From NCBI GenBank assembly GCA_964544935.1, contig CAZJDZ010000003.1, positions 24,568 to 88,567 of the forward strand: 64,000 nucleotides of DNA, in the 5' to 3' direction. Source of the DNA: an uncultured Candidatus Saccharibacteria bacterium. GTDB lineage: Bacteria > Patescibacteriota > Minisyncoccia > Phycocordibacterales > UBA5272. Shown one piece after another: positions 7,044 to 42,589 of the stretch. Each line of letters starts with the position of its first letter. Positions within the stretch are counted from its first letter, which is position 1. The notes under the pieces were generated by a model that saw nothing but the letters and a program-made list of their open reading frames with translations, was not told where the DNA came from and ran no database searches. Position numbers and translations under genes: made by a program.

Positions 7044-9095
7044 ATGAAATTATTAACTCGTTTTTTTCTTAAACTTTACCAATACACAACAATTGTCATT
7101 GCTGTCGGGGCACCGCTCTTTTTTATACCTAAAACAGGATTCAGCGGAGATATAACCTATCATATTGCGATGATGGTGCTCGTTGCTATTGCGCTCTTTT
7201 CGTACGTGTTCTTGGCACTCTCAACACGAACATGGCATAGTGTTTCTAAACTCGAATTCATAGCATATTTTGTATTTTCTCTTTCTGTTATCGGTTCAAT
7301 TATTTTTTCAAAAAATCCTCAAATTATTTTCTTTGGAGAAATGTTCAACCAAAGTTCTGGAGCAGCTCTTCTATCTCTTCCGGTTATCATGTATCTTGTG
7401 CGAGCGCTTCCTGAAACAATTCGCCATAAACTCAAGCTTGTAATGGCTGGCGTTCTTGCTGTTTCTTCATTTGTTTTTGTCACAGCACTCATGATTGGAG
7501 GGACGTTCCTTAGTTATAGTAAAACTCTCTTTTTAGGTTTTTCAAGCACTCTTTCTTTTGCTGCGTACATAGGACTCTTCTCAGTAGCTTGTTTTTTCTA
7601 TGTACGGAAAGCAAAATTAGCAAAAAAATGGAAGACATTTATCTTCATAACAGGAGTTCTTTTTATTGCGCTCCTTATTACTCTTTCTTCACAAGATAAT
7701 ATTCGTCCCAATGTTACAAGTACTCTTAGTGTTGGACAAAAAGTAATGATGCAAGAAGGTTTGTTTGGTATTGGTGCAGGTAATTTTGCACGAGCTTGGC
7801 AGCTTCATAGACCTGTTGATGTTATTGCTTCACCATATTTCGGGTATGATTTTCTACAAGGTGCAGATACAATTTCAACATTCTATGTAACAATTGGATT
7901 ATTTGGAGTTATCGGATTCCTTATGCTTGTCTTGTCTGCGCTCTATAGCACAATCGTAAGTTATCGCCAAAATAAAGAGGGACAGGAGCATTTTATTCTT
8001 GGATTTCTGGCACTCACACTTCTTTATTTTATTGTGGTATCTTGTTTCGTGCCGCTCTCATATGCAATGCTTGTTATGTGGATGGTTGTTGGAGGTCTCG
8101 GTCTTGCAAAGGCTCGTCTTACAGAGTTTCATCCAAGTAAAAAGCTTGCGTACCTCATTATACCTGTCCTCTTCTTGTTGGTAGCAAATGCCGTTATGAC
8201 AATCAATAAGACTCGAGCGTTCACTCTTTACAATGCATCTCAAACTGCAACAAGTGCTCAGGATGCGGAAGATTTTATTGTACAAGCTTCAAATATCTAT
8301 AAGTATGATGGCTTCTACCGAATGCTTATTGAGTATGCGATAACTTCCAACAGAAATATTGTTGCTACAGGAGGAGAAGATCAGGAAGCACTTAAGACTG
8401 CATATCTTACAAAAACTCAATCTGCTGTTGCGTATGGACTTGAAGCAGTAAATCTTAATCCAAATAATTATCAAAACTATGTTTCACTCGGTCGCGCTTA
8501 CGAACTAGTTATTCCTTTTGAGAAAGAAGGTGGATATGAGAATGCAAAAAAATCATATCAAGCAGCAGTATCACTATATCCGGAAAATCCATATCTATAC
8601 CTTATGCTCGCTCGACTTGATACATCTGCAGGAACAAAAGAAGGGGTTCGTGAGCACTTAACTGATGCTATTAAAAAGAAACAAAACTTTGCTGACGCTC
8701 TATACCTTATGAGTCAGCTTGAAGCTTCAGAAAGTAGAATTGATGAAGCACTTGCTTATGCAATTGAAGCGATTAAGAGTGCCCCAAATGACCCAGCAAC
8801 ATATGTACAGGCAGGACTTCTTTTCTACGGAAAGAAAGATTATCAAAACGCTGTATATGCTCTTAAGACAGGGCTCGAAAAAGATCCTAACAATGCAAAC
8901 ATTGCATACTTCTTAGCATTATCACTTCGTGATGGTGGACGTCCTGATTTTGCAAAACCTTTAGCAGATGAGCTTCTTCGTAGAAATCCTGGAAATGTTG
9001 ATCTTCAGAATTTTATAAATTCATTGGTTGAGACTAATCTTGCACCAGCAACAACAACTACAAAAACACCTGCAAAAACTCCTACAAAGAAGTAA
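7044..9095 (+). CDS. polytopic membrane protein with a C-terminal TPR-repeat domain (O-antigen ligase/Wzy-like plus TPR architecture)
   Basis: About 10 predicted TM helices in the first roughly 400 aa, then TPR-like repeats (YQNYVSLGRAYE, ATYVQAGLLFYGKKDYQNAVYALKTGLEKDPNN). Ligase assignment is by architecture only. Confidence 0.45.
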   Translation: MKLLTRFFLKLYQYTTIVIAVGAPLFFIPKTGFSGDITYHIAMMVLVAIALFSYVFLALSTRTWHSVSKLEFIAYFVFSLSVIGSIIFSKNPQIIFFGEMFNQSSGAALLSLPVIMYLVRALPETIRHKLKLVMAGVLAVSSFVFVTALMIGGTFLSYSKTLFLGFSSTLSFAAYIGLFSVACFFYVRKAKLAKKWKTFIFITGVLFIALLITLSSQDNIRPNVTSTLSVGQKVMMQEGLFGIGAGNFARAWQLHRPVDVIASPYFGYDFLQGADTISTFYVTIGLFGVIGFLMLVLSALYSTIVSYRQNKEGQEHFILGFLALTLLYFIVVSCFVPLSYAMLVMWMVVGGLGLAKARLTEFHPSKKLAYLIIPVLFLLVANAVMTINKTRAFTLYNASQTATSAQDAEDFIVQASNIYKYDGFYRMLIEYAITSNRNIVATGGEDQEALKTAYLTKTQSAVAYGLEAVNLNPNNYQNYVSLGRAYELVIPFEKEGGYENAKKSYQAAVSLYPENPYLYLMLARLDTSAGTKEGVREHLTDAIKKKQNFADALYLMSQLEASESRIDEALAYAIEAIKSAPNDPATYVQAGLLFYGKKDYQNAVYALKTGLEKDPNNANIAYFLALSLRDGGRPDFAKPLADELLRRNPGNVDLQNFINSLVETNLAPATTTTKTPAKTPTKK

Positions 9096-9144
9096 TTTGT
9101 GTGTTTCCTAAGAAAGTTTTGTAACAAAGCTTTCTTCAAATACA

Positions 9145-10161
9145 ATGACACTTTCCGAAATTGAAACTATTCTAGAAGAGCTTGCTGCACGTCATCCAAA
9201 TCTTACTGAAGCATTGCTCACTACGATGCTCACTGCTTCTGGTTGGGAAGAAAAGAATATAAAAGATGCTGTTGTGCTTTTTAAGCAAAAAGAAAGCAGT
9301 GGTGGAATGAAGAAAGTTATGTCAGTTGCTACAGATGCGACCCAAGGTTCGAACCCTGTTGTTGTACAAACTCAAGCATCTGATCTTCCTTCAGTGCCAG
9401 TTCCTCCTCCTTTAGCCCCAGCTGAGATGACCTTTTATCATCCTGATGGAACAGAAGAAGAATTGCATCCAGTTGAAGAAGTTCCTGTTATAAAAAAAGA
9501 AGAACCAAAAAAAGAAATTCTTCTTGAGAAGAAGAGTGTTGAACCTACACAGCCTCAACCAACAGAACTTCCAATAACACAAGAAACAGAAAATATTCAA
9601 GAAATAGATATTCCTCAATCTGTTGTAACAGAAGATCCTATTCTTGTACAAGAAGAAAGTAAGCAGGAGGAAGTTATTGCTCAAGTAGAAATTCCACAGG
9701 TGCCACAAAAGACTATTCTACTCGAAGCGTTGCCACAACTGACAACATCAGCATATGAGCCAGAGTCTCTCATTGTTCAAAAACCAGAAATAAAAACTCC
9801 TCCAAAACAAAATCATATCCCAGATGATTTGCCGCTTATTCCATTTGAAAGCTCTCCGCACATCTGGTCTTTTGCACGATATAAAAATGTTTTCCACGCA
9901 GATGATGCTGTTCCTGAGGAGGAAGTGAAAGCAATTGAGCAACGTAGGGTTTATATTCCGCAAGAAAAGCCAAAAGAAACAAAGGTGGAGAAACTGGTGC
10001 ATACAGAAGTTTCTGATCAGAATCAGAATGAGGAAGAAGAAATTACTGTAGAAATAACCCCAATGACACGAGAAGATGAATCTTTAGTGTTCTTGGCCGG
10101 AATCATGCTTCTTGCTATAATTTTGATACTGGGGTATATGTACAGTAACGGGCGCTTATAA
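9145..10161 (+). CDS. hypothetical Pro/Glu/Gln-rich protein with a C-terminal TM anchor
   Basis: 338-aa ORF. Low-complexity P/E/Q/V-rich middle and a C-terminal hydrophobic helix (LVFLAGIMLLAIILILGY). Confidence 0.4.
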   Translation: MTLSEIETILEELAARHPNLTEALLTTMLTASGWEEKNIKDAVVLFKQKESSGGMKKVMSVATDATQGSNPVVVQTQASDLPSVPVPPPLAPAEMTFYHPDGTEEELHPVEEVPVIKKEEPKKEILLEKKSVEPTQPQPTELPITQETENIQEIDIPQSVVTEDPILVQEESKQEEVIAQVEIPQVPQKTILLEALPQLTTSAYEPESLIVQKPEIKTPPKQNHIPDDLPLIPFESSPHIWSFARYKNVFHADDAVPEEEVKAIEQRRVYIPQEKPKETKVEKLVHTEVSDQNQNEEEEITVEITPMTREDESLVFLAGIMLLAIILILGYMYSNGRL

Positions 10162-10178
10162 ACTTAATTATATTTTTT

Positions 10179-10961
10179 ATGGAATCATCGTATAAAAAGA
10201 ATGCATGGATCGCAGCAACTGTTGCACTCGTGTGTATTTCTTTTGCAGCATTTACATTTGGCATGAGTAGTCTTGACGCAATTAAACATCCAAACGGGCA
10301 GGTTGCCACTATTTCTGTTTCTGGAGAAGGTGAGGTTATTACTATTCCAGATATTGCAACGGTAACATTTACAGTGCGTGAATCAGCTAAGACTGTTCCT
10401 GAAGCGCAGAAGCTTGCAGAGGCAAAAGTTGCAGCTGGGCTAAAAGGTCTTGAGGCACTTGATGTTGAGAAAAAAGATACAAAAACTATTTCGTATAATG
10501 TTGGACCTAAGTACGAATCACAGCAAACAGGATATTGTAATGGATATATTTGTCCTCCAATGAAGACAATAGTTACTGGGTATGAGGTTACTGAAACTAT
10601 TTCAGTAAAGGTTCGTAAAGTTGATCAAGCAGGGAATGTAATTGGTATTTTAGGAAAAGCTAATATTACCGAAATTAATGGCCCAGAGTTCACAGTTGAT
10701 GATATGGATAAGGCAAAAGAAGATGCTAAGAAGGAAGCTATTAAGAAAGCTCAAGCAAAAGCAAAGGTAGAAGCAGATGCTCTCGGAGTTTCTCTCGGTG
10801 CTATTATTTCCTTTAGTGAGGACGGGGGTTACTACCCAGCACCAATGATGTACAAAGCAGATACAATGCTTGCTTCTGGTGAAGCAACGGAAGCTGTTTC
10901 ACTTCCACAAGGTGAAAATACTATTAAGTCACGAGTAACAATTACCTACACAATTAAGTAG
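10179..10961 (+). CDS. SIMPL-domain (DUF541) secreted protein
   Basis: N-terminal signal/TM. ISVSGEGEVITIPDIATVTFTV and the C-terminal ...RVTITYTIK are characteristic of SIMPL/DUF541. Confidence 0.6.
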   Translation: MESSYKKNAWIAATVALVCISFAAFTFGMSSLDAIKHPNGQVATISVSGEGEVITIPDIATVTFTVRESAKTVPEAQKLAEAKVAAGLKGLEALDVEKKDTKTISYNVGPKYESQQTGYCNGYICPPMKTIVTGYEVTETISVKVRKVDQAGNVIGILGKANITEINGPEFTVDDMDKAKEDAKKEAIKKAQAKAKVEADALGVSLGAIISFSEDGGYYPAPMMYKADTMLASGEATEAVSLPQGENTIKSRVTITYTIK

Positions 10962-11135: not shown

Positions 11136-11318
11136 ATGAAAATCTTACAATACCTCAAAGAAACAAAGAACGAACTCAAAGAAGTTGTTTTTCCTACTTC
11201 AGCTCAAACAATTACCTACACCATGATCGTTATTTTTATCTCTGTACTGGTAGCACTTGGTCTTGGTGGTGTTGATCTAGGACTTCGTGAGCTTTTGGCA
11301 AAAGTTATTGCTCGCTAG
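11136..11318 (+). CDS. secE: preprotein translocase subunit SecE
   Basis: 60 aa with a single C-terminal TM. Lies immediately upstream of nusG (conserved secE-nusG arrangement). Confidence 0.7.
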   Translation: MKILQYLKETKNELKEVVFPTSAQTITYTMIVIFISVLVALGLGGVDLGLRELLAKVIAR

Positions 11319-11360: not shown

Positions 11361-11906
11361 ATGGCTAAACAAGAATTTACAGGAGAGCGTCACTGGTACG
11401 CAATTCATACATATAGTGGATATGAGAATGCGGTGCTTCGTAATCTCAAGCAGCGTATCGAGTCACTTGGAATGGAAGATAAGATTTTTGCCGTCGTCGT
11501 TCCTCTCGAAAAGAAGATCAAGGTAAAAGGCACTAAGCGTGTAGAGGTTGAAGAAAAGATTTATCCAGGATATGTTCTCGTTGACATGATTGTTGATGAT
11601 AATAGTTGGTACGTTGTACGTAACACACCTCGAGTAACTGGATTCGTTGGAGCAGGGACAACCCCTGTGCCACTTTCTCAGAAAGAAATTGATTTCCTCT
11701 TCAGTCGTATGAACACAGGAGAGGTTGAGCATGAAATTGCGGTTACAGAAGGAGAGCTTGTTGGAATCATCGACGGCCCATTTAAGGACTTTGAAGGTAA
11801 GGTTTCTGAGGTTGATAAAGCCCGCGGGAAATTAAAGGTGCTTGTTAATATGTTTGGACGAGAGACTCCGGTTGAGCTGGACTTCCTTCAAATCAAAAAA
11901 ATCTAA
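11361..11906 (+). CDS. nusG: transcription termination/antitermination factor NusG
   Basis: NGN domain start (RHWYAIHTYSGYE). KOW-like C-terminus (GPFKDFEGKVSEVD). secE-nusG-rplK context. Confidence 0.9.
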   Translation: MAKQEFTGERHWYAIHTYSGYENAVLRNLKQRIESLGMEDKIFAVVVPLEKKIKVKGTKRVEVEEKIYPGYVLVDMIVDDNSWYVVRNTPRVTGFVGAGTTPVPLSQKEIDFLFSRMNTGEVEHEIAVTEGELVGIIDGPFKDFEGKVSEVDKARGKLKVLVNMFGRETPVELDFLQIKKI

Positions 11907-12052
11907 AGTAAAAAGCGTAAAATCACCCCACCTTCTTTGTTGTAACTTCATTTTTATCAGTCGTCGTAGGTCTACTACGCCTTCTTTCAAAAAATCGTTA
12001 CGCCTCGAATCCGTAACGATTTTACGCTTTTTATGAACCGTGATAAAAAGGG

Positions 12053-12081
12053 TTGAAAATCTTAAAAAACCGTGATATAAT
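12053..12081 (+). promoter_or_regulatory. sigma70-like promoter upstream of rplK (TTGAAA-17 nt-TATAAT)
   Basis: TTGAAA at 12053-12058 and TATAAT at 12076-12081, exactly 17 nt apart, about 12 nt before the rplK ATG region. Confidence 0.45.
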
Positions 12082-12093
12082 ACCAAAACTTAT

Positions 12094-12507
12094 ATGGCAG
12101 CTAAAAAAATTACAAAATACGTAAAAGTTCAAATCGAAGCAGGTAAAGCTACTCCTGCTCCACCACTTGGTCCTGCCCTCGGTCAGGCCGGTGTTCAGAT
12201 TGGTGATTTCGTTAACAAGTTTAACGCAGCAACACAAGGAAAGCAGGGAAGAATGTCTGTAAAGATTTATGTGTATGAAGATCGTACATACGATTTCGTT
12301 ATCAAATCTCCTACAGCTACATCACTCGTGATGAAAGCAGCAAATGTTGCAAAAGGAAACAGTAAAGGAAAGGCTGGAACAATTTCAAAGGACAAGATTC
12401 GTGAAATTGCAGAGCTCAAGCTTGCTGACCTTACTGCACACACTGTAGAACAAGGAATGAAGATTATTGAAGGTACTGCACGTTCTGCTGGAATCGCAGT
12501 TGTCTAG
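12094..12507 (+). CDS. rplK: 50S ribosomal protein L11
   Basis: MAAKKI...VQIEAGKATPAPPLGPALGQAGVQI is the canonical L11 N-terminus. 137 aa. Confidence 0.95.
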   Translation: MAAKKITKYVKVQIEAGKATPAPPLGPALGQAGVQIGDFVNKFNAATQGKQGRMSVKIYVYEDRTYDFVIKSPTATSLVMKAANVAKGNSKGKAGTISKDKIREIAELKLADLTAHTVEQGMKIIEGTARSAGIAVV

Positions 12508-12645
12508 TTTAATCATAAAATAAGCATCTGCTTCGTTAGTTGAAATTTTACTTCCGCAATGTACTACTTGTATATTTTGGTCGCAAAAATTCCAACAGCC
12601 TTGCACCCATCTTATTTTCTGAATAAACAAAAATGCAATAAAAAC

Positions 12646-12677
12646 AAAAAACCGCACAAGTTGCGGTTTTTTGTTTT
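12646..12677 (+). terminator. rho-independent terminator after rplK
   Basis: AAAAACCGCACAAGTTGCGGTTTTTTG. Confidence 0.6.
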
Positions 12678-12745
12678 CTTATGTAGGATTATGCCAGCCC
12701 CAGAAATGGGATTCAGTTCATCAATAGTATAAAAGAGGTACTCTC

Positions 12746-13885
12746 ATGTCTCAGCACAATTGTGGAGCCTTTAGCAAGGACGACATGATTTCACTCATTT
12801 CGGCAGGTAGGATTGAAACCCTTCCAGGCTTTGATGAAAAACACATCGGTCCTGCATCGATTGATATTACCATCGCAAATGGCGAAGCTTACCGAGTGGA
12901 GCGCCTGATGCGCCCTAGTGGTAAACGTCGCGAACGGATTCGTGACATGTTGCCAGCCCTCGGGGCGCGACCCATTGAAATTGGTTCGATCCTTGTTCCG
13001 GGAGAAAAATACATTGCACCGGCAACGATTGGCGCAAACTTTTCGCCAGGTATGTATGGCTACAGCAATGCAAAGTCGACCAGTGGCCGCAACATGTGTC
13101 TGGTGAGGACTCTCGCTGATCAGGTTGAAGGGTACGATACTCTCGATAGGAGATGGGAAGGTTGGAGTGGCGAGCTTTGGCTCACTATCGAACCGCTTGT
13201 TTTTCCGATTGTCCTGACCGACAAGGAGTGCTACTCGCAAGTGCGGATGTTTGATGGAGATACCCGTTTCAGTGACAATGATTTGAAGGATGAGCTTGCG
13301 AAACAAGATTTTCTCTATCGCCAAGATGGCAGCAGATACAAGCAAGGTGAGCTCAGTCTTGCATCAGGTGACGGGACGGTCTTTACGACGTTGTACGCAA
13401 AAGCTGGGAAGCTTGTTGGTTTCCGGGCAAAGAGAACACGTAAGCCTCTTGACCTTGAAATGCGAAAACTTGATCCGAGAGAGTACTTTGAACCCGTGTA
13501 CGCTGAGGTTGACCCAAGTGATCCTGAGGGAGGACTCATCACTCTTGAGCCAGGGTGGTACTACCTCTTGTCCACCAATGAGATGCTTCATGTTCCTGAG
13601 CATCTGTGTGCAGAGCTTGTTATGCTTCATCCGCGTTTCGGGCTGTTCTTTTCTCACTTCGCTGGTTTCTTTGATCCTGGGTTTAGGGGGGTTCCGACCC
13701 TTGAAGTGACTTGCCTCATTCCGACAACAATGAGACACCGTGAAGCAGTTGGTTGTTTCCGGTACGAGAGGATGCGTTCGAAGACTGTTTCTTACGCACA
13801 ATCCGGAAATTACAGTGGTCAAGTTCGTACTACGTTGCCAAAGCAGTTTTTGATGCCGGAAGAGTGGCGTCTTGCAATGGCATGA
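12746..13885 (+). CDS. dcd: long-form 2'-deoxycytidine 5'-triphosphate deaminase (DCD)-like protein
   Basis: 379 aa. HIGPASIDITI resembles the dCTP deaminase/dUTPase-fold substrate block. Next to dut, folA and thyA. The gene is markedly GC-richer than its flanks. Confidence 0.5.
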   Translation: MSQHNCGAFSKDDMISLISAGRIETLPGFDEKHIGPASIDITIANGEAYRVERLMRPSGKRRERIRDMLPALGARPIEIGSILVPGEKYIAPATIGANFSPGMYGYSNAKSTSGRNMCLVRTLADQVEGYDTLDRRWEGWSGELWLTIEPLVFPIVLTDKECYSQVRMFDGDTRFSDNDLKDELAKQDFLYRQDGSRYKQGELSLASGDGTVFTTLYAKAGKLVGFRAKRTRKPLDLEMRKLDPREYFEPVYAEVDPSDPEGGLITLEPGWYYLLSTNEMLHVPEHLCAELVMLHPRFGLFFSHFAGFFDPGFRGVPTLEVTCLIPTTMRHREAVGCFRYERMRSKTVSYAQSGNYSGQVRTTLPKQFLMPEEWRLAMA

Positions 13886-13901
13886 GCATTTTGCTCAAAG
13901 C

Positions 13902-13930
13902 GGTCCCTCGGGACCGTTTTTCTTTTTTGA
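13902..13930 (+). terminator. terminator hairpin after dcd-like gene
   Basis: GGTCCC-TCG-GGGACC followed by a T-run. Confidence 0.5.
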
Positions 13931-13944
13931 TATACTTATACACA

Positions 13945-14364
13945 ATGAAACTTAAAATTAAAAAACTAAGAGATGACGCACGTGTCCCTACACGAGCACA
14001 CAAGGAAGATGCTGGAATTGATCTCTATGCTTGTGGCGATCACGTTGTGTTACCTCATCAGACAGTAAAGATTCCTCTTGGTGTTGCAATGGAAATAGAG
14101 GAAGGGTATGTAGGACTTATGTGGGACAAGTCGAGTATTGGGTCACAGAGTTTGAAGACGCTCGGTGGTGTAATAGATGCTGGGTATCGAGGCGAAGTAC
14201 TAGCCATGGTTCATAATCTTGGTGATGAGAGCTATACATTTCTCCATGGTCATAAAGTGGCGCAAATGGTAATACAAAAAGTTGAACTTTGGGAAGTAGA
14301 AGAAGTAGAGGAACTCACTGATTCTCTTCGAGGAGAAAAAGGGTTTGGAAGTACAGGGAAGTAA
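13945..14364 (+). CDS. dut: dUTP diphosphatase (dUTPase)
   Basis: dUTPase motifs AGIDLYA, GVIDAGYRGEV, MVIQKV and C-terminal RGEKGFGSTGK. Start chosen at MKLKIKK (ATG 13945) rather than the longer track ORF at 13753. Confidence 0.85.
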   Translation: MKLKIKKLRDDARVPTRAHKEDAGIDLYACGDHVVLPHQTVKIPLGVAMEIEEGYVGLMWDKSSIGSQSLKTLGGVIDAGYRGEVLAMVHNLGDESYTFLHGHKVAQMVIQKVELWEVEEVEELTDSLRGEKGFGSTGK

Positions 14365-14367
14365 ATA

Positions 14368-14390
14368 GTGCGCAGCCGTAGGCTGCGCAC
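14368..14390. terminator. bidirectional terminator hairpin between convergent dut and folA
   Basis: GTGCGCAGCC-GTA-GGCTGCGCAC: perfect 10-bp stem with a CGTAGG-type loop. Confidence 0.55.
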
Positions 14391-14406
14391 TTACATGCTT
14401 TTGTTC

Positions 14407-15003
14407 TTATTCCATGTGACGGAAGTAGTCAAGAAAATCAACTCGGACTTCACCATCCCACTCACTCAGAACAGCTTGCTGTGAGATGATAACAAATCCA
14501 GAAGCGACCACCATCTCGTGAAGAGGCTTCTCAAGGCAGTGAAGCCCAGTATCATCAGACTCCTTATGGACGACACTGAGGTATGCATGGGATGCGTGCT
14601 GCAGGCCAGCCTCCCAAGATACTTTTCCTCCAGCGAAAAAGACATTATGTATTTCAGGCATTCTGGCTGCATGTATGAGCCCTGCTTCTGCAGAAGGAAT
14701 CAACATGAAGTCACTTTCTTTTACATGTACCCCATTCACACTTCTGGAAATACCCATCACTACACGGTTAGGGAGTGTTCTTTTACCTGCATCTGTAAGT
14801 GCTTCAGCTGTCGCTCTGTCGACAATCACAAGGTTCTTCTTGCCTACAGGAGCTTCGCTTGTGATTGATTTGAATCGACGCATATCCTCTTTGAGCGAAC
14901 CTCTTGGCCAAGGCATACCAGACCCAAGACCGAAAGCATGATGGACAGCAGTGTGTGCACCAATCAGTGCAATTCTTGAGCTATGAACATAAGGTATCAT
15001 CAC
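14407..15003 (-). CDS. folA: dihydrofolate reductase
   Basis: IALIGA...GMPW (substrate loop), LVIVDRATAEAL and VVMGISRS blocks align with DHFR. 198 aa. Confidence 0.65.
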   Translation of the reverse strand: MMIPYVHSSRIALIGAHTAVHHAFGLGSGMPWPRGSLKEDMRRFKSITSEAPVGKKNLVIVDRATAEALTDAGKRTLPNRVVMGISRSVNGVHVKESDFMLIPSAEAGLIHAARMPEIHNVFFAGGKVSWEAGLQHASHAYLSVVHKESDDTGLHCLEKPLHEMVVASGFVIISQQAVLSEWDGEVRVDFLDYFRHME

Positions 15004-15085
15004 AATTCTCCAATCTTGAGTGAGGTTGGTCTGTACATAACTTTACATGATTTTCACAAAAAAGAAAGCTTTTTAATTTTAAAAA

Positions 15086-15110
15086 TAAAAAACCTGCCGA
15101 AGCAGGTTTT
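15086..15110 (-). terminator. terminator after thyA
   Basis: Minus strand reads AAAACCTGC-TTCG-GCAGGTTTTTTATTTTT. Confidence 0.6.
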
Positions 15111-15127
15111 GATATCAGACTCCAGTC

Positions 15128-15988
15128 TCAGATAGCAACTGGAGCTTTGATGGCTGGGTGGTGTTGGTAGTCCAGCACTTCGAAGTCTTCATAATTGTAA
15201 CCGGAGATCGAATCGGTCTTGCTCTTGATGTGAAGCACCGGGTAAGGCAGGGGTTCACGGGAGAGTTGAGTCTCTGCCTGTTCGAAGTGGTTGTTGTAGA
15301 GATGGCAGTCGCCGCCAGTCCAGATGAAGTCGCCTACATCTAGGTCACACTGCTGTGCCAGCATATGAGTCAGTAAGGCGTAGCTAGCGATATTGAAGGG
15401 CACGCCGAGGAAGATATCTGCACTGCGTTGATAGAGCTGGCAGCTGAGCTTGCCACGGCCACCCCGTTCAGTAGCTGGTGCCACGTAGAACTGGAAGAAT
15501 GCATGGCAAGGCATCAGTGCCATCTTGTCGAGATCAGCCACGTTCCAAGCGCTGACGATGATGCGACGGCTATCTGGGTTGACCTTTAGTTGCTGTACCA
15601 CCTGACTGATCTGGTCAACGTGACCACCGTCAGGTGTAGGCCAGTTGCGCCATTGCACACCATAGACCGGACCCAGCTCGCCATCTTCGCGTGCCCATTC
15701 ATTCCAGATCGTGCAGCCGTGTTCTTGCAGCCATTTCACATTACTGTCGCCACGCAAGAACCATAACAGTTCCACGATGATGGCTTTAAGGAAGACCTTC
15801 TTTGTGGTCACTAACGGAAAGCCCTCGTTCAGGTCGAAGCGCATTTGATAACCGAATACGCTGCGCGTACCAGTGCCTGTACGGTCTCCTTTAGCCACGC
15901 CATGTTCGTACACATGACGCATGAAATCTTCATACTGAGAGCGGACAGGACGAGATGTAATAACATTCTCTTGTTTGCTCATGATCAT
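15128..15988 (-). CDS. thyA: thymidylate synthase ThyA
   Basis: Canonical ThyA blocks: [56 protein letters not shown]. Confidence 0.95.
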
Positions 15989-16122
15989 TTCTCCATGGTA
16001 ATGTTCAGAATCTTACAAGATATTAGTCTCAGTAAGGCTAACTTTATAATAGTAAAAAGCATAAATCAGCACAATCTTGTCATTTGCTATAAAAATGTTC
16101 AAAAATAATGTAGTATAGAGGG

Positions 16123-17823
16123 ATGAATTCGTACGAAGCGATACAAGAAGTGCTTAAGGCAGCAACAGGAGGAGATATCACTTTCTCTCTTGATCAGCCA
16201 GAAGAAATATCTCATGGAGATTACGCCACCAATGTGGCATTTCCATATTCAAAAAAACAGGGAATGTCTCCAAAAGAATGTGCAGAAAAAATGCTTCCAG
16301 AACTGAAAGATAGCCTTTACCCTATCATACAAGATATCCAAGTTGCAGGACCAGGGTTCATTAATTTCTTTTTAAGAGATGACATTCGTACTGATGAAGC
16401 AGAAGAAATTGCTCTACATGGAGTGTTACGACCTCTCTTAGATGAACAAGCACTCGTTGAGTATACCGACCCAAATTGTTTCAAAGTTTTTCATATTGGT
16501 CATTTGATGTCGAATACTATTGGAGAATCTATTTCTCATATTTATGAAATGAAAGGATATAAGGTGACTCGTGTTTGTTACCCGTCAGATATCGGAAGAA
16601 ACGTGGCGATGGGTGTCTGGGGTGTCATGCAAAAAGAAAATGAGATGCCAGAAGCTAGTGCATCACTTAAAGATAAAGTTGCATTCTTGGGTATGTGTTA
16701 TGCATATGCGAATGAGCAGTTTGAAACAAATGAAGAAGCAAAGAAGGGTATCATTGACGTTAATAAAGCAATCTACGCAGCATCAGATGAAAAAGTGATG
16801 GAAGTGTATAGAGAAGGACGGGAACTTTCACTTGCGTATTTTGATAGTCTCTACAAAAAACTTGGCACAACGTTTGATGCTTTTATTTATGAATCCGAAG
16901 TATCAGAACCAGGGCTTGCAATTGTTCAAGAGTATTTGAAGAAAGGAATCTTTGAAGAATCAGAAGGAGCAATTGTATACAAAGGGGAACAAGACGGGCT
17001 CCATACTCGTGTGTTTGTAAACAAAGAAGGCCTTCCAACATACGAAGCAAAAGATCTTGGTAACTATGAGAAGAAGCTTGTACTTCTTCCACATGCAGCA
17101 CACTATGTGGTTATCACTGCCAAAGAACAAGACGAGTACTTCAAAGTAATCAACAAAGTTTCAGAAAAAATTCACACTGATCTTGCTTCCAAACTTACTC
17201 ATATCGGCCACGGCATGATGAGACTTCCATCAGGTAAGATGTCATCTCGTACAGGGAATGTGATCGGAGGAGAGGACATGCTTGATATGATTTCTGAAAA
17301 GATTCGCGAGAAAGTAACAGAGATGCGAGTACCTGATGGAGAGAAAGAACAGTTGGTAAATGATATTGCAGTTGGTGCTATTAAGTTTTCTATTCTTAAG
17401 ATTGCCCCAGGTAAAGATATCGCATTTGATTTTGATAAATCAATTTCTTTTGAAGGGGACTCAGGACCATACCTTCAGTACACTCATGCAAGACTCTCCG
17501 CGCTTCTCGACAAAGCAACTGAGGCTGGTATCTCATTTGAACACGGATATGTAGTTACTTCTCCTGAGAAAGAATTAGAGAAGGTTATTATGGGGTATCA
17601 AGAAGTGCTTACAAAAACATATGTTGATCTAGGACCTCATCATATTGTCCAACATCTTCTTATGCTCACAAAAGCATTCAATAACATGTATGCGCGAGTA
17701 CAGATAATTAACAGCGAAGACAAAGATACAAGTGCTTACTATCTTATACTTGTAGCAGCTACCAAAAATATTCTTGCCCACGGGCTGCACATCTTAGGAA
17801 TAGCTGCTCCAAAGCGGATGTAA
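16123..17823 (+). CDS. argS: arginine--tRNA ligase
   Basis: 566 aa. Class I HIGH-like block FHIGHLMSNTIGESI. C-terminal DALR-type anticodon-binding domain ending ...AAPKRM (terminal Met typical of ArgS). Confidence 0.8.
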   Translation: MNSYEAIQEVLKAATGGDITFSLDQPEEISHGDYATNVAFPYSKKQGMSPKECAEKMLPELKDSLYPIIQDIQVAGPGFINFFLRDDIRTDEAEEIALHGVLRPLLDEQALVEYTDPNCFKVFHIGHLMSNTIGESISHIYEMKGYKVTRVCYPSDIGRNVAMGVWGVMQKENEMPEASASLKDKVAFLGMCYAYANEQFETNEEAKKGIIDVNKAIYAASDEKVMEVYREGRELSLAYFDSLYKKLGTTFDAFIYESEVSEPGLAIVQEYLKKGIFEESEGAIVYKGEQDGLHTRVFVNKEGLPTYEAKDLGNYEKKLVLLPHAAHYVVITAKEQDEYFKVINKVSEKIHTDLASKLTHIGHGMMRLPSGKMSSRTGNVIGGEDMLDMISEKIREKVTEMRVPDGEKEQLVNDIAVGAIKFSILKIAPGKDIAFDFDKSISFEGDSGPYLQYTHARLSALLDKATEAGISFEHGYVVTSPEKELEKVIMGYQEVLTKTYVDLGPHHIVQHLLMLTKAFNNMYARVQIINSEDKDTSAYYLILVAATKNILAHGLHILGIAAPKRM

Positions 17824-19108: not shown

Positions 19109-22100
19109 ATGAACAACAACCAACCCCCAAAAACAATTAGTGAGAAAGAGCAGGAAGTTCTTGCTTTCTGGAATGAGCACAAGATTTTTGAAAAGTCCGT
19201 CGAGATGCCAGCTTCTGAAAAAGCAAAAGGCAACTTTTCATTCTATGACGGTCCTCCGTTTGCAACAGGGCTTCCTCACTATGGCCATATTTTAGCAGGG
19301 ACCATTAAAGATGCTATCCCTCGTTACCAGACTATGAAAGGAAATACTGTTCGTCGTGTATGGGGTTGGGATTGTCATGGGCTTCCAATTGAAAACTTGA
19401 TTGAGAAGAAACTTGGCCTTGCAAGTAAAAAAGATATTGAAGACTTTGGTATTGATAAGTTCAATCGCGATGCATACGAGAGCGTTCTTCAGTATGAAGC
19501 AGAGTGGAAGAATATTGTTCCTCGTCTAGGACGTTGGATTGATATGGACATACCGTATAAGACAATGGATGCAACATACACAGAAAGTATCTGGTGGGCA
19601 TGGAAGACTCTCTATGAGAAGAAGCTCGCTTATGAAGGTAACAAGATGATGCATATCTGTCCGAGATGTGAGACTACTCTTGCTCAGAGTGAGGTGGGTA
19701 TGGAATATCATGGTGTGACTGATCTTTCGGTGACTGCGAAGTTTGAGCTCGTCGACGAACCAGGGACATATGTGCTCGCGTGGACTACAACACCGTGGAC
19801 ACTTCCTGGTAACTCAGCACTCGCGGTGAATAGGGATATTATTTATGTGAAGGTAAAAGCAACTGCAAAAGAAGGAGATAGACAAGAGTTGTATATTCTT
19901 GCAAAAACAAAGTTTGAAGAATATAAAGCATACGCTGAAAAAGATTTTGCAGCTTTTGATATTGTTGAAGAATCTACTGGTGATAAACTTGTTGGTAAAA
20001 CATACAAGCCAGTATTTCCTTACTTTGAAAACACTGATTTAGAACACAAAGAAAATATTTTTACAATCTGGCACGCAGACTTTATCACTGATGATGCAGG
20101 TACTGGCATTGCACATGAGGCGCCAGCATTTGGTGCAGAAGATATGGAACTTGCCAAGCTTCATAACATACCAGTGATTAAACATGTGAGAATGGATGGA
20201 ACTTTCATTGATGCGGTTAGTGATTTTGCAGGCATGAAGGTGAAACAAAAAGACGACACTCAGTCAGCAGATATTGAAGTGATCAAATGGCTCGCACATA
20301 ACGGGAAGCTTTTTGAGAAACACAAAATCATACACTCGTACCCACTCTGTTGGCGATGTAAAACGCCGTTACTCAACTATGCAACAAGTAGTTGGTTCGT
20401 CGACGTTCCAGCTATTAAATCTAAACTCATTTCTGAGAATCAGTCCATCGGATGGACTCCGTCTCACACACGTGATGGACGTTTCGGTAAATGGCTAGAA
20501 GGTGCACGCGAGTGGGCGGTTTCACGATCTCGTTATTGGGGAGCACCACTTCCTGTTTGGAAGAATGAAGATGGAAGTGAGGTGAAAGTGATTGGATCAC
20601 TTAAGGAACTTGCTGAGAGCTCAACCGCAAAACCAAAGAACACATACTATGTGATGCGTCATGGCGAGTCTATTGCAAACAGAGATGGGTACATGGATGT
20701 TGGTACAGATATTCACAATCATCTTACTGAAAATGGTATGCAACAAGTACATGTTGCTATCAGTGAGCTTAAGGATAAGCAGATAGATATGATTATTTCT
20801 TCTCCTGTGCTCCGTACACAAGAGACCTCAGAGATTGTTGCAAATGCGCTCAATCTTCCAATCATCTATGATGATCGTATTAGAGAGTACAATATGGGTG
20901 TTTATAATGGGAAACCCGCAAAGGAGTATTTTGATATGTATAAACATACATATGTACAACTTGATACTCGACCAGATGATGGGGAAACACACAGAGAAAT
21001 GATGGACAGATCTATGGCATGTATCTTAGATTTAGAAAAACAGTATGCTGGTAAAACTATTCTTATAGTGACACACGGAGGGCCTGCACGTATGATGACT
21101 ATGGCTTCCGAGCTTCTTACTGAAGAAGAGGTTGTTGAAGAAGAGCGTAGCGGAAAAGTAACACTATATCCAAAAAATGCTCAGATTAAAAAATTAAATC
21201 TTTTACTTGTTCCTCGTGATGAAACAGGTGCAGTTAATCTTCATCGACCGTACATTGATGAAGTAAAACTTATCGACAGTAAAGGAAATGAAATGAAGCG
21301 CATTGGAGACGTGTTTGATTGTTGGTTCGAGTCAGGGTCTATGCCGTTTGCATCAATCCATTATCCATTTGAGAACAAAGAGCTCTTCAAAAAGAATTAT
21401 CCAGCGCAGTTTATTGCTGAAGGAATGGATCAGACGAGAGGGTGGTTCTACTCGCTGATTAACTTAGGAGTTGGGCTCTTTGATAAAGCTCCATACCAGC
21501 ACGTAATCGTGAACGGTCTCGTACTTGCTTCCTCGGGGGTAAAGCTTTCTAAGAGTGAGAAAAACTACACAGATCCTATGGAACTTGTTGAGAAATATGG
21601 GGCGGACGCTATGCGGTATGCGCTCCTTTCGTCTCCAGTTGTTAAAGGAGAAAACCTTCAGTTTGATGATGATGCTATTTCTGATGTTTACAAGAAGTGT
21701 ATTTCACGTCTTGAGAATGTTGTGGCACTGTATGAAATGAATCTTCCTCAAGGGGTTACTCCTCGCGCATCATCAAACAATATTCTTGATACTTGGATGC
21801 TAGCTAGGCTTTATGAACTTATCGCCGCCTCAACACAAGGATACGATACGTATATGTTAGATGAAGCTACTCGTGGAATAGGAGATATCATAGATGATAT
21901 ATCGGTATGGTATACGCGCCGCTCACGAGATCGTCTCAAGGGTGATGAGGGGGAGAAGGAACAGTTGGAGACATACGAAACTCTTTCGTATGTGTTGCTT
22001 ACACTTTCAAAAGTAATGGCACCTGTTATGCCTTTTATCGCAGAGCGTATCTATAAGCAAGTCGGAGGAACAAAAGAATCTGTTCATCTTGATAGTTGGC

Positions 22101-22585
22101 CAGAAGTGGTTTCTGTTAACACAGAGCTCATCAAAGCAATGAAAGAAGTTCGTAATGCGGTTTCTCTTGGGCTTATGAAGAGAACTGAAAGTAAGATTAA
22201 TGTGAAGCAGCCTCTCCTTTCTGTTACTTTTAAGCAATCAATTGATGAGAAGTTCTTTTCTCTTATTAAGGATGAGCTTAATGTGAAAGAGATTCGTATC
22301 GATGCATCTCAAGCAGAAGATGTTGCGCTTGATACAACAATTACCGAAGAACTACAAAGAGAAGGGGATGTGCGTAAACTTATGCGTGCAATACAAGACG
22401 CCCGTAAGGAAAAAGGGCTCAAACCATCAGATGAAATTGTGCTTAGCCTTTCTTCTCGTGAAAATCTTGGAGACATCTCTACACTTCTTGCAACCTGTAA
22501 GGTGAGTGAAGTTCATGAGGTTCCTTCAGTTGAAGGAACTAAAGTTGAACTATCAGATACGGCAGTGACTATTGCAATTCAATAG
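19109..22585 (+). CDS. ileS: isoleucine--tRNA ligase with an embedded histidine-phosphatase (PGAM-like) domain
   Basis: HIGH (PHYGH), WTTTPWTLPGN and KMSKS-variant KLSKS identify IleS. About 200 extra aa are inserted between the conserved ...PVWKNEDGSEVKVIGSLKEL and LHRPYID blocks. The insert contains RHGES, SSPVLRTQET and IVTHGG (histidine-phosphatase superfamily catalytic core). Confidence 0.9.
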   Translation: MNNNQPPKTISEKEQEVLAFWNEHKIFEKSVEMPASEKAKGNFSFYDGPPFATGLPHYGHILAGTIKDAIPRYQTMKGNTVRRVWGWDCHGLPIENLIEKKLGLASKKDIEDFGIDKFNRDAYESVLQYEAEWKNIVPRLGRWIDMDIPYKTMDATYTESIWWAWKTLYEKKLAYEGNKMMHICPRCETTLAQSEVGMEYHGVTDLSVTAKFELVDEPGTYVLAWTTTPWTLPGNSALAVNRDIIYVKVKATAKEGDRQELYILAKTKFEEYKAYAEKDFAAFDIVEESTGDKLVGKTYKPVFPYFENTDLEHKENIFTIWHADFITDDAGTGIAHEAPAFGAEDMELAKLHNIPVIKHVRMDGTFIDAVSDFAGMKVKQKDDTQSADIEVIKWLAHNGKLFEKHKIIHSYPLCWRCKTPLLNYATSSWFVDVPAIKSKLISENQSIGWTPSHTRDGRFGKWLEGAREWAVSRSRYWGAPLPVWKNEDGSEVKVIGSLKELAESSTAKPKNTYYVMRHGESIANRDGYMDVGTDIHNHLTENGMQQVHVAISELKDKQIDMIISSPVLRTQETSEIVANALNLPIIYDDRIREYNMGVYNGKPAKEYFDMYKHTYVQLDTRPDDGETHREMMDRSMACILDLEKQYAGKTILIVTHGGPARMMTMASELLTEEEVVEEERSGKVTLYPKNAQIKKLNLLLVPRDETGAVNLHRPYIDEVKLIDSKGNEMKRIGDVFDCWFESGSMPFASIHYPFENKELFKKNYPAQFIAEGMDQTRGWFYSLINLGVGLFDKAPYQHVIVNGLVLASSGVKLSKSEKNYTDPMELVEKYGADAMRYALLSSPVVKGENLQFDDDAISDVYKKCISRLENVVALYEMNLPQGVTPRASSNNILDTWMLARLYELIAASTQGYDTYMLDEATRGIGDIIDDISVWYTRRSRDRLKGDEGEKEQLETYETLSYVLLTLSKVMAPVMPFIAERIYKQVGGTKESVHLDSWPEVVSVNTELIKAMKEVRNAVSLGLMKRTESKINVKQPLLSVTFKQSIDEKFFSLIKDELNVKEIRIDASQAEDVALDTTITEELQREGDVRKLMRAIQDARKEKGLKPSDEIVLSLSSRENLGDISTLLATCKVSEVHEVPSVEGTKVELSDTAVTIAIQ

Positions 22586-30675: not shown

Positions 30676-30945
30676 ATGAAAGCAAATGGTTCGGCCACCC
30701 TGGGCCAGAATCAGATTCAGGGAATGGTCATCAAGGTCAAGCCACAAGGTGACGGAACCCTCAGGTTTCGTGTCACATGCCATGACTCAAAGGGGCGCGT
30801 TGCACACTACAAAGATTTCTACCTTCCTCCGGAGAGCAGTTTCCGAGAGAGGGTGGTTGCAGGTCGTCGTGCACGTGTCACTTACGAACAACAACCAGGT
30901 CGCCCGCGGGCAACCCCTCTTGAGATTGAGCTTGTCAGTGAATGA
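30676..30945 (+). CDS. hypothetical small protein in a GC-rich (about 53%) islet
   Basis: 89 aa. Strong SD (CCAAGGAGGTAACC-ATG). Followed by inverted repeat AAAATGCCGT...ACGGCATTTT (30964-31007). An overlapping alternative-frame ORF exists. Confidence 0.4.
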   Translation: MKANGSATLGQNQIQGMVIKVKPQGDGTLRFRVTCHDSKGRVAHYKDFYLPPESSFRERVVAGRRARVTYEQQPGRPRATPLEIELVSE

Positions 30946-31063
30946 AGGCTCGATCGCAGAATCAAAATGCCGTTTTGCTCCCATAAAGAGCAAGACGGCA
31001 TTTTCTACTGGTCTACTTTTTGAGGCTTTGATTTATATATATAATGTGGTATAATGCGCTCCT

Positions 31064-40161: not shown

Positions 40162-40962
40162 TTATTTCTTTGGTGGTAGTGGAATAAATGCACTTGTCTT
40201 TTGCTTGTACTCTTCCCACTCACTATTTCCTTCCCATTTTTTCTCGAGCATCGGAATTCCAGAAACATAGAGTAGTAGATAGGTAATTAGGAAAGGTGAG
40301 AGTAGTACTGCGTATGACGCACCGGATGCAAGTGCTATGAAACTAAGGCCGAACCACATAGTTGATTCGCCAAAATAATTTGGATGGCGTGTATATTTCC
40401 AAAGACCAGTCTTCATGATTGTCCCTTTGTGAGTACTTTTACTTTTGATAAATCTATCAAGCTGCTTGTCTCCTGTTGCTTCAAAGAAGAAACCAATAAA
40501 CCAAACCACTAGACCAAAAAGAAGAGTGTGTGTGCCTGCTCCTTGAGCACTTAAGCTTAGTGTAAAAGGAAGGAGTACTATACTGATAATCAATCCTTGA
40601 AGAATAAATATTTGGAGATAGGTACGAGCAAGGTAGTATTTGTAGCCTTTACGCATCCACGTATTCCTCCATGTTGCATATCTAAAATCTTCTGGCTTCC
40701 CTTTGTTTTTGTTATAAATTCTCGTTGCCAAGCGTGTTCCCCATAGTGTGATGAGGGTAAAAATAATAATTGAATACGGAGTAAGAGGGAGGGGGCTGAA
40801 TTTATTCATAAGAATAATACTTACAATAATAAATCCAAGCCCATACGCAATATCAATAATACTGTTATTCTTTTTTACTTGTGCGATAAAAAAGAGGACA
40901 GTTGTATATCCAAGAGTAATAATGAGAGAAAAGATGTAGAGAGCAATAGTGAGAACTGTCAT
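40162..40962 (-). CDS. DUF1295 / ICMT-like membrane protein (steroid-reductase/methyltransferase-like fold)
   Basis: Multi-TM. Signature GLWKYTRHPNYFGESTMWFG (the RHPNYFGE block of DUF1295/ICMT-like families). Confidence 0.55.
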   Translation of the reverse strand: MTVLTIALYIFSLIITLGYTTVLFFIAQVKKNNSIIDIAYGLGFIIVSIILMNKFSPLPLTPYSIIIFTLITLWGTRLATRIYNKNKGKPEDFRYATWRNTWMRKGYKYYLARTYLQIFILQGLIISIVLLPFTLSLSAQGAGTHTLLFGLVVWFIGFFFEATGDKQLDRFIKSKSTHKGTIMKTGLWKYTRHPNYFGESTMWFGLSFIALASGASYAVLLSPFLITYLLLYVSGIPMLEKKWEGNSEWEEYKQKTSAFIPLPPKK

Positions 40963-41260
40963 AAGAAAAAGTATACCAGAGGGGAAGAAGGGGGTGTTGA
41001 TAGGAAAAATAAAATGCCTTGAAGTTGCTTCTAAGTGAGTAACTTCACCTGATGTGTATTCTCTCTATCCAAACAATAGTAGAAAACAGGATATATAAGG
41101 CTTTAATCATGCTAAAAGGCCTTTAAAAACAAGCAAATAAAGGGGAAAATAGATTGACAAACTAGTATAAATATGCTATGATATATACATCATAAACCTC
41201 GAGCCAAACTTGATTTGGCCAGTAGGTCAATGAAGCTTGCTCTTTTACAGGAGAACAGAA

Positions 41261-41737
41261 ATGCGCGCGTCAAATTTCAAGCAGTTCAAGAAGGGTCTGC
41301 AACGCCAGATCGTCAATTTCTCGATCGAAGCCGACAGAGATGTTGGTGACGATGAGTTCGAACCCCCAATCTATCGCCATTCGGCGGCAGAAATTCTGGT
41401 CTGGATCCTCGACAAGAAGGGGGTCACACTGCGTAACCACCAACTCGTCGAAGCGTGGAGGTCCATCGTCAGCAAGTGCTGGAACCTGGTGGACTTCACA
41501 TCTTTTGGCGAGAACGATGCTTTGCGCATCCTTTCGGAAATTAACCACTGGATGAAGCGGTCACCTCGCATCACTGCACAGGTGAGGCGCACAGACCGAC
41601 GTGGTAAGCGCAATGCCAACAACCAGTTTTGGAATGGGCAATTGCTTCGCCCTGAAGCACGGGTCATGTCTGATACGAACGGGCACACTGTTGTTGTTCC
41701 TCGTGTCACCAGAATTCGCCGAGTTGCTACGGCTTGA
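41261..41737 (+). CDS. hypothetical protein, first gene of a GC-rich (about 52%) islet next to ssrA
   Basis: SD AGGAGA 8 nt upstream of the ATG at 41261 (the track ORF starts earlier at 41237). Basic Arg-rich C-terminus. No recognised motif. Confidence 0.4.
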   Translation: MRASNFKQFKKGLQRQIVNFSIEADRDVGDDEFEPPIYRHSAAEILVWILDKKGVTLRNHQLVEAWRSIVSKCWNLVDFTSFGENDALRILSEINHWMKRSPRITAQVRRTDRRGKRNANNQFWNGQLLRPEARVMSDTNGHTVVVPRVTRIRRVATA

Positions 41738-41771
41738 AGGAAGTAACACAAAACTGCTAAGGAGATCGTCA

Positions 41772-42514: not shown

Positions 42515-42548
42515 AGCAGTTGGCTTTCTCCTATTCCTCACAGTCAAT

Positions 42549-42583: not shown

Positions 42584-42589
42584 TTGATG

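Follow-up and report, generated by a model that had tools for sequence, protein, structure and literature searches.

What lies between the ribosomal protein gene rplK and the arginyl-tRNA synthetase gene argS in bacteria of the Candidate Phyla Radiation (CPR), and where it came from, is the question raised by a 64,000-nucleotide stretch of contig CAZJDZ010000003.1 (assembly GCA_964544935.1), which belongs to an uncultured Patescibacteriota bacterium and is called the window below. Here the interval holds four genes of thymidylate supply: dcd (a long-form dCTP deaminase-like protein), dut (dUTPase), folA (dihydrofolate reductase, DHFR) and thyA (thymidylate synthase). The initial annotation took them for a GC-rich island, acquired laterally as a complete dTMP-synthesis module and perhaps as phage cargo, in the place of rplA, rplJ and rplL. 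The genes themselves are as it described: the four open reading frames (ORFs) exist at the coordinates proposed, belong to the families proposed according to Pfam and NCBIfam, and follow rplK directly, with argS on the other side. The island is not borne out. With good confidence in the explanation as a whole (native locus, gene histories, foreign thyA and its spread), the block is the lineage's own dTMP locus and not an inserted island, and the nusG-rplK unit ends at a terminator. Of the four genes thyA alone is foreign: judged by its sequence, it is a xenologue whose source is Burkholderiales of the Hydrogenophaga/Rubrivivax/Rhodoferax type.

The native character of the locus emerges from its counterparts in relatives, in a comparison that takes in 64 kb of the genome concerned and, for each relative, no more than ±10 kb. 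A search of species-representative genomes with ArgRS returned two relatives, one of them labelled Candidatus Paceibacterota (a CPR phylum, Minisyncoccota in current NCBI taxonomy); both carry nusG-rplK, dcd, dut, a thymidylate synthase gene (thyX in one, a thyA with a 35%-identical product in the other), tmk and argS. Scanning metagenome contigs with a NusG profile added 80 loci, with NusG 70-94% identical. Forty-four loci, window included, reach at least 4 kb past rplK (NusG 70-100% identical) and were submitted to a census by tblastn (E≤1e-5). A thymidylate synthase gene follows rplK in 42 of them (thyA in 37, thyX in five), in 35 argS is found no more than 10 kb past rplK, and folA is present in 24, always beside thyA and never beside thyX. 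The order secE-nusG-rplK, then dcd, dut, thymidylate synthase, folA and/or tmk, and argS is common to the relatives that searches with ArgRS, L11, ThyA, Dcd and NusG brought up, and the rplK product is 90-96% identical in L003, L004, L005 and L009 (L numbers designate related loci). Synteny in relatives, which had been proposed as a check on the island, thus counts against insertion.

The missing ribosomal genes fit the same picture. No L1, L10, L7/L12 or RpoB fragment was matched in the 64 kb by tblastn with approximate E. coli queries, for the first three in agreement with the initial annotation, and with queries of this kind L1, L10 and L12 were found after rplK in none of the 44 census loci. 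A diverged L1 was sought among first ORFs of 210-250 aa after rplK; nine of the ten scanned with Pfam gave a match, none ribosomal (cytidylyltransferase-like, CYTH, dCMP deaminase, kinase, F420-ligase-like), and the tenth (L064) gave none. According to the passages that treat the subject (Brown et al. 2015, cited in PMC7304191; bioRxiv 10.1101/2022.01.07.475337), rpL1 is missing in a subset of Parcubacteria. The present case resembles them in having rplK without a following rplA, here and after rplK in all 44 loci, and in the labels of its relatives, Paceibacterota or Parcubacteria; membership is by these source labels (Candidatus Paceibacterota; Patescibacteria/Parcubacteria) and the absence of L1 is at the level of the locus. 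Because the succession of rplK, thymidylate genes and argS recurs in relatives and L1 loss is published, the island-like block is read as the normal content of the site in this clade. A CPR lineage without linked rplA had been the fallback of the initial annotation, and this suggestion fits. The passages on L1-lacking Parcubacteria in these sources make no mention of what occupies the former rplA position, namely thymidylate genes and then argS.

The compositional contrast that had suggested an island is real but is borne by two of the four genes. The block has a GC content of 0.482, against a mean of 0.401 (sd 0.029) for same-size stretches of the window (z = 3.2), and ties for the top of 608 sliding windows. 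At third codon positions (GC3), for which 54 genes of the window give a background of 0.307 ± 0.074, thyA (0.596, z 3.9) and dcd (0.484, z 2.4) are high, while folA (0.387, z 1.1) is near background and dut (0.293, z -0.2) is the same as background. The earlier figures of about 50% for all four genes and about 38% for their flanks therefore hold only in that the block is the GC-richest of its size; the flanking genes have 0.39-0.42. The windowed analysis that had been recommended likewise gave a GC outlier, but the GC-normalised tetranucleotide distance at 1-kb resolution did not set the block apart (z about 1.1-1.4), a result that is neutral as to transfer. As the foreign thyA is incompletely adjusted and dcd is GC-richer than its flanks, the GC excess of the block is the sum of these two parts.

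The case for a foreign thyA is made by its closest homologues, its phylogeny and its composition. ThyA is 83-92% identical to its best matches, and those that are named are all Burkholderiales (Burkholderiales bacterium, Betaproteobacteria, Rubrivivax, Hydrogenophaga), with cluster members named Hydrogenophaga, Rubrivivax and Rhodoferax; at least 120 of the matches listed are of this Burkholderiales type, at 82-92% identity. The closest (91.7%) is encoded on contigs of 69% GC, beside genes for outer-membrane efflux, MarR, ABC-transporter and acyltransferase proteins, where the donor-type thyA has the GC3 of its neighbours (0.887); the window gene is 83% identical to it in nucleotides. In a bootstrapped neighbour-joining tree on about 270 sites, the ThyA sequences of the window, L005, L009 and L091 fall inside the Burkholderiales clade with 100% bootstrap, and E. 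coli and other CPR ThyA types fall outside, so that the phylogeny called for earlier does point to nearest donors. At the same position in L004 stands a ThyA only 35% identical to that of the window. Four independent assemblies (window; L001, 98% identical in nucleotides; L005; L009) carry the foreign gene at one and the same place and in one orientation, which makes chimerism very unlikely. Its GC3 in CPR carriers, 0.60-0.71, is intermediate between that of the donor type (0.89) and that of the host (about 0.3), and lies above that of host genes by 0.28 (window), 0.39 (L005) and 0.36 (L009), against a mean excess of 0.04 for the thymidylate synthase genes of 43 related loci. Since the type is common and GC-matched in Burkholderiales, and rare and GC3-intermediate in CPR, the transfer is taken to have run from the former to the latter. 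The acquisition is fairly recent, GC3 having fallen only from about 0.89 to 0.60. The ORF of thyA is uninterrupted, with a likely true start at the ATG at 15982, the NF002497 match covers profile positions 2-264 of 264, and the catalytic cysteine and dUMP-binding motifs agree with those of the E. coli enzyme. Lateral acquisition, as first proposed, thus stands for thyA; dcd, dut and folA are without foreign phylogenetic affinity.

The other three genes have histories of their own. The 139-aa Dut contains motif 3 (GVIDAGYRGEV, expected IDxGYRGE) and motif 5 (RGEKGFGSTGK, expected RGxxGFGSTG). Its identity to the protein at the same position is 96% in L005, 70% in L004, 66% in L003 and 62% in L009; for ArgRS the values are 91%, 67% and 72% in the first three, L009 having a different ArgRS type (36%). 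Because these identities broadly track those of ArgRS and IleRS, and because the gene has host composition, dut looks vertically inherited and would form the core of the locus.

Dcd passes the Pfam models DCD_N (73 bits vs 21.4), DCD_C (83.6 vs 22) and DCD (100.3 vs 27) and matches PDB entry 2r9q over residues 15-351 (E 9e-27). It shares the DCD_N and DCD_C architecture with this long-form deaminase of Agrobacterium tumefaciens (PRK07559), and in its C-terminal half the dCTP deaminase motif FDPGF...TLE is retained. It is unlike that family in scoring 160.3 bits against the NF005734 equivalog cutoff of 283, so that it is filed as DCD-like and not as an equivalog, and in being only about 30% identical to members from outside CPR (Chloroflexota, Terriglobia); its subfamily is a separate one, the close members of which come from CPR-labelled or related genomes. 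Its homologues grade from 100% to 45% identity, and all named ones are Patescibacteria, Paceibacterota, Parcubacteria or Gracilibacteria. The gene is syntenic in L004, L005, L090, L091 and L092, and its GC3 exceeds that of flanking genes in most relatives checked (window, L004, L005, L090, L092), for which reason its GC excess looks intrinsic. Dcd similarity breaks the order of NusG similarity (L090, NusG 74% and Dcd 82%; L004, NusG 93% and Dcd 55%), which suggests exchange of dcd among CPR lineages. In the position that dcd has in relatives, L009 carries a 234-aa ORF (7446-8150, minus strand) of GC3 0.52 and with no Pfam match.

FolA is a divergent DHFR. A word-index search returned only FolA itself and one 51% homologue; the rest were found by an exhaustive HMMER search, with ten matches at E≤1e-10 among 1.84 billion cluster representatives. 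The NCBIfam DHFR models, which describe resistance variants, all score far below their cutoffs. Across the 15 members of the subfamily P30, W31, D39, F43, T47, R79 and G124 are invariant, and G125 and T142 nearly so; these residues probably map to W22, D27, F31, T35, R57, G95-G96 and T113 of the E. coli enzyme. The AF2 model (pLDDT 93.4, pTM 0.89) resembles DHFRs in every one of the best 50 PDB matches listed, at a TM-score of about 0.76, up to 0.77, and a probability of 1.00. On this modelling, folA would be a working DHFR from a rare subfamily that occurs in related CPR genomes, and long-form dcd and the window-type DHFR appear to be shuffled among such genomes. FolA of the nearest relative, L005, is only 26% identical to that of the window and is encoded on the opposite side of thyA; each of the two DHFR lineages recurs in a more distant relative, the window type in L011 and the L005 type in L017. 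L011 FolA, one of the ten HMMER matches, is among the nearest homologues of window FolA, and its gene has the same slot and orientation. Because it stands there beside a different thyA type, the window-type folA may be older at the locus than the foreign thyA. An earlier proposal that folA was recruited twice after the arrival of thyA was softened on the same ground.

How often the foreign thyA entered CPR is the point on which the evidence is most divided. A single entry, with later spread by recombination within conserved flanks and independent divergence driven by composition, is probably the correct account and is held loosely. Separate entries into the lineages of the window, of L005 and of L009, with closely related Burkholderiales as donors each time, are unlikely, though a number of observations weigh against the explanation preferred here. 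The three CPR ThyA copies are star-like, being 85-88% identical to each other in amino acids against 88-92% to the donor type (79% against 81-83% in nucleotides); they are monophyletic in only 11% of bootstraps, L009 leaning to a Hydrogenophaga cluster; and the carriers are not monophyletic by NusG or Dut, with L003 and L004 between them. Third-position GC-to-AT changes common to the window and L005 number 20, against 15.9 expected (p 0.10), that is, at chance level; the overlaps with L009 are modestly significant and may reflect site heterogeneity. To these are added points that bear on the wider explanation. Most ThyA matches are unnamed metagenome proteins, so that the donor is named from about ten clusters and one contig, and branching within the Burkholderiales clade lacks resolution. 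The census used few queries, those for L1, L10 and L12 being approximate E. coli sequences, and divergent genes may escape it, the Pfam spot check having covered ten ORFs. The absence of rplA, together with rplJ-rplL, tmk and the folate one-carbon enzymes, is judged from the 64 kb or the locus and not genome-wide, and the cause of dcd being GC-richer than its flanks lies outside the explanation. Synonymous sites have little resolving power for dating, since the identity that they show in native genes (0.57-0.82) overlaps with the value for thyA (0.55).

What favours one entry is the identity of the insertion and of its surroundings. All copies of the foreign thyA lie on the minus strand at the same point, directly before the argS promoter. 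Between the window and L009, the AT-rich region between thyA and argS is 82% identical, against 49-55% for their other intergenic regions. A homologous hairpin, with CGAA as its loop and compensatory changes in its stem, stands directly 3′ of thyA in L009, L005 and L091, and no such terminator hairpin is found downstream of the donor-type gene; the hairpin would thus accompany the foreign thyA in its moves. Fast, independent, composition-driven change after one entry would also yield a star-like tree. The last ~25 nt before argS (AATAATGTAGTATAGAGGG; AATAATGTAGTATAGAG) are conserved in L003, L004, L005 and L009 whatever lies upstream, and are therefore predicted to be the native argS promoter. 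The thyA-argS intergenic region of L005 has received a second folA, which has a terminator of its own. Under the single-entry account thyA would have entered CPR once, gained a CPR-type promoter and terminator, and moved between related lineages through the conserved flanks.

It might also be argued that the block contains no foreign gene and that its higher GC reflects constraints intrinsic to the genes, such as amino-acid composition or expression level. The behaviour of dcd agrees with this, as the gene belongs to a CPR family and yet surpasses its flanks in GC in most of the relatives compared; in L003 and L004 the genes of nucleotide metabolism at the locus are likewise a little GC-richer than those beside them. 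ThyA, with 92% identity to a betaproteobacterial protein against 35% to a relative's ThyA at the same position, does not agree with it, nor does the GC3 excess of +0.28 to +0.39 in three carriers when the thymidylate synthases of the clade average +0.04. This account is refuted for thyA and favoured for dcd, and as an explanation of the whole block it is very unlikely.

The joint arrival of the four genes as one dTMP module, for example as phage cargo that displaced rplA-rplJ-rplL, is highly improbable. The four genes do form a complete route from dCTP to dTMP in the GC-richest 3.2-kb stretch of the window, and thymidylate synthases are frequent in phages, 4220 records of which match ThyA. The best of these phage proteins is nonetheless only 66.9% identical, against 91.7% for the bacterial contig of Burkholderiales type. 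Neither integrase nor att-like direct repeats or IS ends beyond chance-length matches were found at the borders of the rplK-argS block, and the nearest tRNA gene is at 46408. The genes differ in history: dut, at background composition, is native; in dozens of relatives dcd, dut and a thymidylate synthase gene are found at this same position; and close relatives of the long-form Dcd and of the DHFR subtype are confined to CPR-labelled or related genomes. The one terminator per strand pair seen by the initial annotation is replaced by four separate hairpins, after rplK, dcd, dut/folA and thyA. As for an assembly or binning artefact, a betaproteobacterial piece in a CPR contig, its probability is negligible: the window does come from a metagenome assembly, and Burkholderiales with near-identical ThyA occur in such data, but the gene recurs in position and orientation in four independent assemblies, has an intermediate GC3 (0.60-0.71, not 0.89), is only 79-83% identical in nucleotides to the donor type and to other CPR copies, and has AT-rich, CPR-specific promoter and terminator flanks shared by the carriers.

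With the native locus and its foreign thyA retained as the best explanation, the slot between dut (or folA) and argS can be followed as a site of turnover, which in relatives holds thyX and tmk, other thyA types or the same foreign thyA. Among close relatives (NusG at least 85% identical), folA(-) thyA(-) is found in the window, L001 and L011, the last with a different thyA type; thyA(-) folA'(+) in L005; thyA(-) alone in L009 and L018; thyX(+) tmk(+) in L003; thyA(-) tmk(+) in L004; and folA(+) thyA(-) tmk(+) in L091. The 39 ThyA sequences from related loci form ten clusters at 55% identity. Two ArgRS types, 36-40% identical, occur at the same position after the thymidylate genes, even where NusG is about 93% identical, and argS seems to have been replaced in some lineages. 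Because thyA/thyX, folA and argS types vary among close relatives, the locus is, as far as its sequences tell, a mosaic. In L092, no recognisable thymidylate synthase gene stands between dut and argS; the interval 8614-10209 holds a GC-rich ORF of 276 aa without Pfam match and two tmk-like genes. In the alignment of the region before rplK (11907-12093 in the window, 9085-9267 in L005, 8671-8854 in L009), the promoter-proximal ~45 nt seem identical in L005 and L009 and differ in the window, which resembles L003 there, although the window and L005 otherwise form the closest pair; this is further evidence of mosaic recombination.

Alternation of this kind has precedents. Sporadic distribution of thyA and thyX, with lateral transfer and displacement, has been described, with viruses favoured as vectors (Stern et al. 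2010, PMC2826268). The present locus agrees in showing both thyX-to-thyA alternation and xenologous replacement of thyA by thyA; it differs in that one fixed chromosomal slot in a CPR clade is concerned, the donor order is named and composition is part-adjusted, and in having no phage link (best phage ThyA 67%). The locus also bears on the coupling of ThyA with DHFR: ThyA yields dihydrofolate and hence needs DHFR, and ThyX does not (Myllykallio et al. 2003; review PMC5954106). The pairing of folA with thyA in 24 loci, and with thyX in none, conforms to it. The locus differs from the described coupling in that 13 of the 37 thyA loci, including L009 with its foreign thyA, have no folA at the locus, and in that close relatives use two unrelated DHFR lineages (26% identical) on opposite sides of thyA.

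With intact catalytic motifs in all four proteins, a pathway can be proposed from the enzymology of the families. Dcd would deaminate dCTP to dUTP, and Dut would hydrolyse dUTP to dUMP, also keeping dUTP out of DNA. ThyA would then methylate dUMP with 5,10-methylene-tetrahydrofolate to give dTMP and dihydrofolate, and FolA with NADPH would reduce the latter, regenerating tetrahydrofolate (PMC5954106). Neither tmk nor thyX was matched elsewhere in the 64-kb window at E≤1; the tmk of this organism must be located elsewhere in the genome.

The features of the locus are collected in the table below. All four focal genes pass Pfam gathering scores, and ThyA and Dut pass NCBIfam equivalog cutoffs.

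Table. Genes, hairpins and intergenic elements of the rplK-argS locus and its surroundings, with the other-type argS genes of relatives (bit scores against model cutoffs)
Feature	Coordinates	Strand	Evidence or remark
secE	11136-11318	+	upstream of nusG
nusG	11361-11906	+	upstream of rplK
rplK (ribosomal protein L11)	12094-12507	+	upstream anchor; TIGR01632 145.7 vs 141.85
Bidirectional terminator-like hairpin after rplK	12640-12678		17-bp stem between A and T runs; separates rplK from dcd
dcd (long-form two-domain dCTP deaminase-like)	12746-13885	+	DCD_N + DCD_C + DCD (Pfam); long-form family PF06559 + PF22569
Terminator-like hairpin and T-run	13897-13920	+	between dcd and dut
dut (dUTPase)	13945-14364	+	family PF00692; TIGR00576 124.4 vs 102.55; NF001862 117.8 vs 103
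GC-rich perfect palindrome AGTGCGCAGCC-GTA-GGCTGCGCACT	14367-14391		between convergent dut and folA
folA (divergent DHFR)	14407-15003	-	PF00186 37.9 vs 25
thyA terminator hairpin	15089-15110	-	CCTGC-CGAA-GCAGG, then T-run
thyA (folate-dependent thymidylate synthase)	15128-15988	-	PF00303 418.9 vs 24.3; NF002497 480.9 vs 327
Divergent promoter region thyA/argS	15989-16122		left ~107 nt specific to carriers of the foreign thyA
argS (arginyl-tRNA synthetase)	16123-17823	+	downstream anchor; Arg_tRNA_synt_N + tRNA-synt_1d + DALR_1 (Pfam)
ileS	19109-22585	+	downstream of argS
Other-type argS, L009	4099-5862		differs in type from window argS
Other-type argS, L011	15753 onward		differs in type from window argS
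Other-type argS, L090	10865-12538		differs in type from window argS
Other-type argS, L091	7513-9240		differs in type from window argS

The hairpin between rplK and dcd is kept in L005, L003 and L004, and the palindrome between dut and folA is a probable terminator common to both genes. Searches of the block and of one further GC-rich region with Rfam gave terminator-like noise only, all below gathering scores. Conserved -10-like boxes, GTAGTATAGAG (16100-16122) and, before dcd, TAGTATAAAAGAGG (12724-12745), end 3-9 nt before the start codon and have the same position in L003, L004, L005 and L009; such proximity suggests very short or absent mRNA leaders in the lineage. A -10-like box near the start and a hairpin of its own for each focal gene suggest that these genes are transcribed separately. 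The 5′ leader of thyA can form a hairpin, CUUAC...GUAAG, in the window (15995-16035, in thyA sense), L009 (5949-5972) and L005 (5947-5966), with variable loop and stem. It was considered as a regulatory element and set aside: its position is conserved, yet in two of the three carriers shuffled sequence folds at least as well.

Other features of the window were recorded in passing. The IleRS encoded by ileS carries a complete His_Phos_1 domain (aa 514-665, about 20648-21103, E 6.8e-35) inside its catalytic tRNA-synt_1 domain, an architecture also present in L001, L005, L009, L090, L091 and L092; a literature search found no description of a His_Phos_1 insertion in IleRS. A tRNA-Ile gene with anticodon UAU (46408-46481, minus strand) represents a rare way to read AUA, and the tmRNA gene (42589-42978, minus strand, Rfam 90 bits) has an atypical-looking tag peptide, ADVGYVVA*, as predicted by ARAGORN. 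The GC-richest gene of the window is a 346-aa ORF (52951-53991, minus strand, GC 0.58, GC3 0.65) with no Pfam match, which may be another foreign gene; it adjoins an 895-aa ORF (50174-52861) with a CARDB domain. Two GC-rich patches, 41237-42191 (0.47-0.52) and 30686-31054 (0.50), contain ORFs without Pfam matches. Rfam gave no match in 40900-42600, and 30686-31054 was covered by the whole-window scan at gathering thresholds only.

The finding removes a false lead, as there is no island displacing ribosomal genes but the ordinary content of the site in a clade known to lack L1. L1-less Parcubacteria, frequent transfer of thymidylate synthases (PMC2826268) and ThyA-DHFR coupling are already known, and current concepts are unchanged; what is new is the named donor order, the part-adjusted composition, the fixed replacement slot and the two alternating DHFR lineages. 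A broader proposal can be put forward tentatively, as a conjecture with the odds against it: the rplK-argS interval of L1-less Paceibacterota would be a replacement hotspot, into which a cassette of ~1 kb, made up of the terminator hairpin, the Burkholderiales-derived thyA and a CPR-type promoter with 5′ leader, entered once, spread between diverged Paceibacterota lineages by recombination in the flanks and was paired with the DHFRs available, the donor clade marking physical associates. The locus provides a datable case in which a core enzyme of DNA-precursor synthesis passed from free-living Burkholderiales into an ultra-small CPR bacterium and is seen before full compositional adjustment. 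It also offers a natural series at one slot that illustrates the dependency of ThyA on DHFR, with folA beside thyA and never beside thyX, and suggests that CPR lineages commonly exchange genes at conserved loci. Should the identity of the donor reflect physical association, the foreign thyA would give a hint of host range for an uncultured lineage, pointing to Burkholderiales of the Hydrogenophaga/Rubrivivax/Rhodoferax type.

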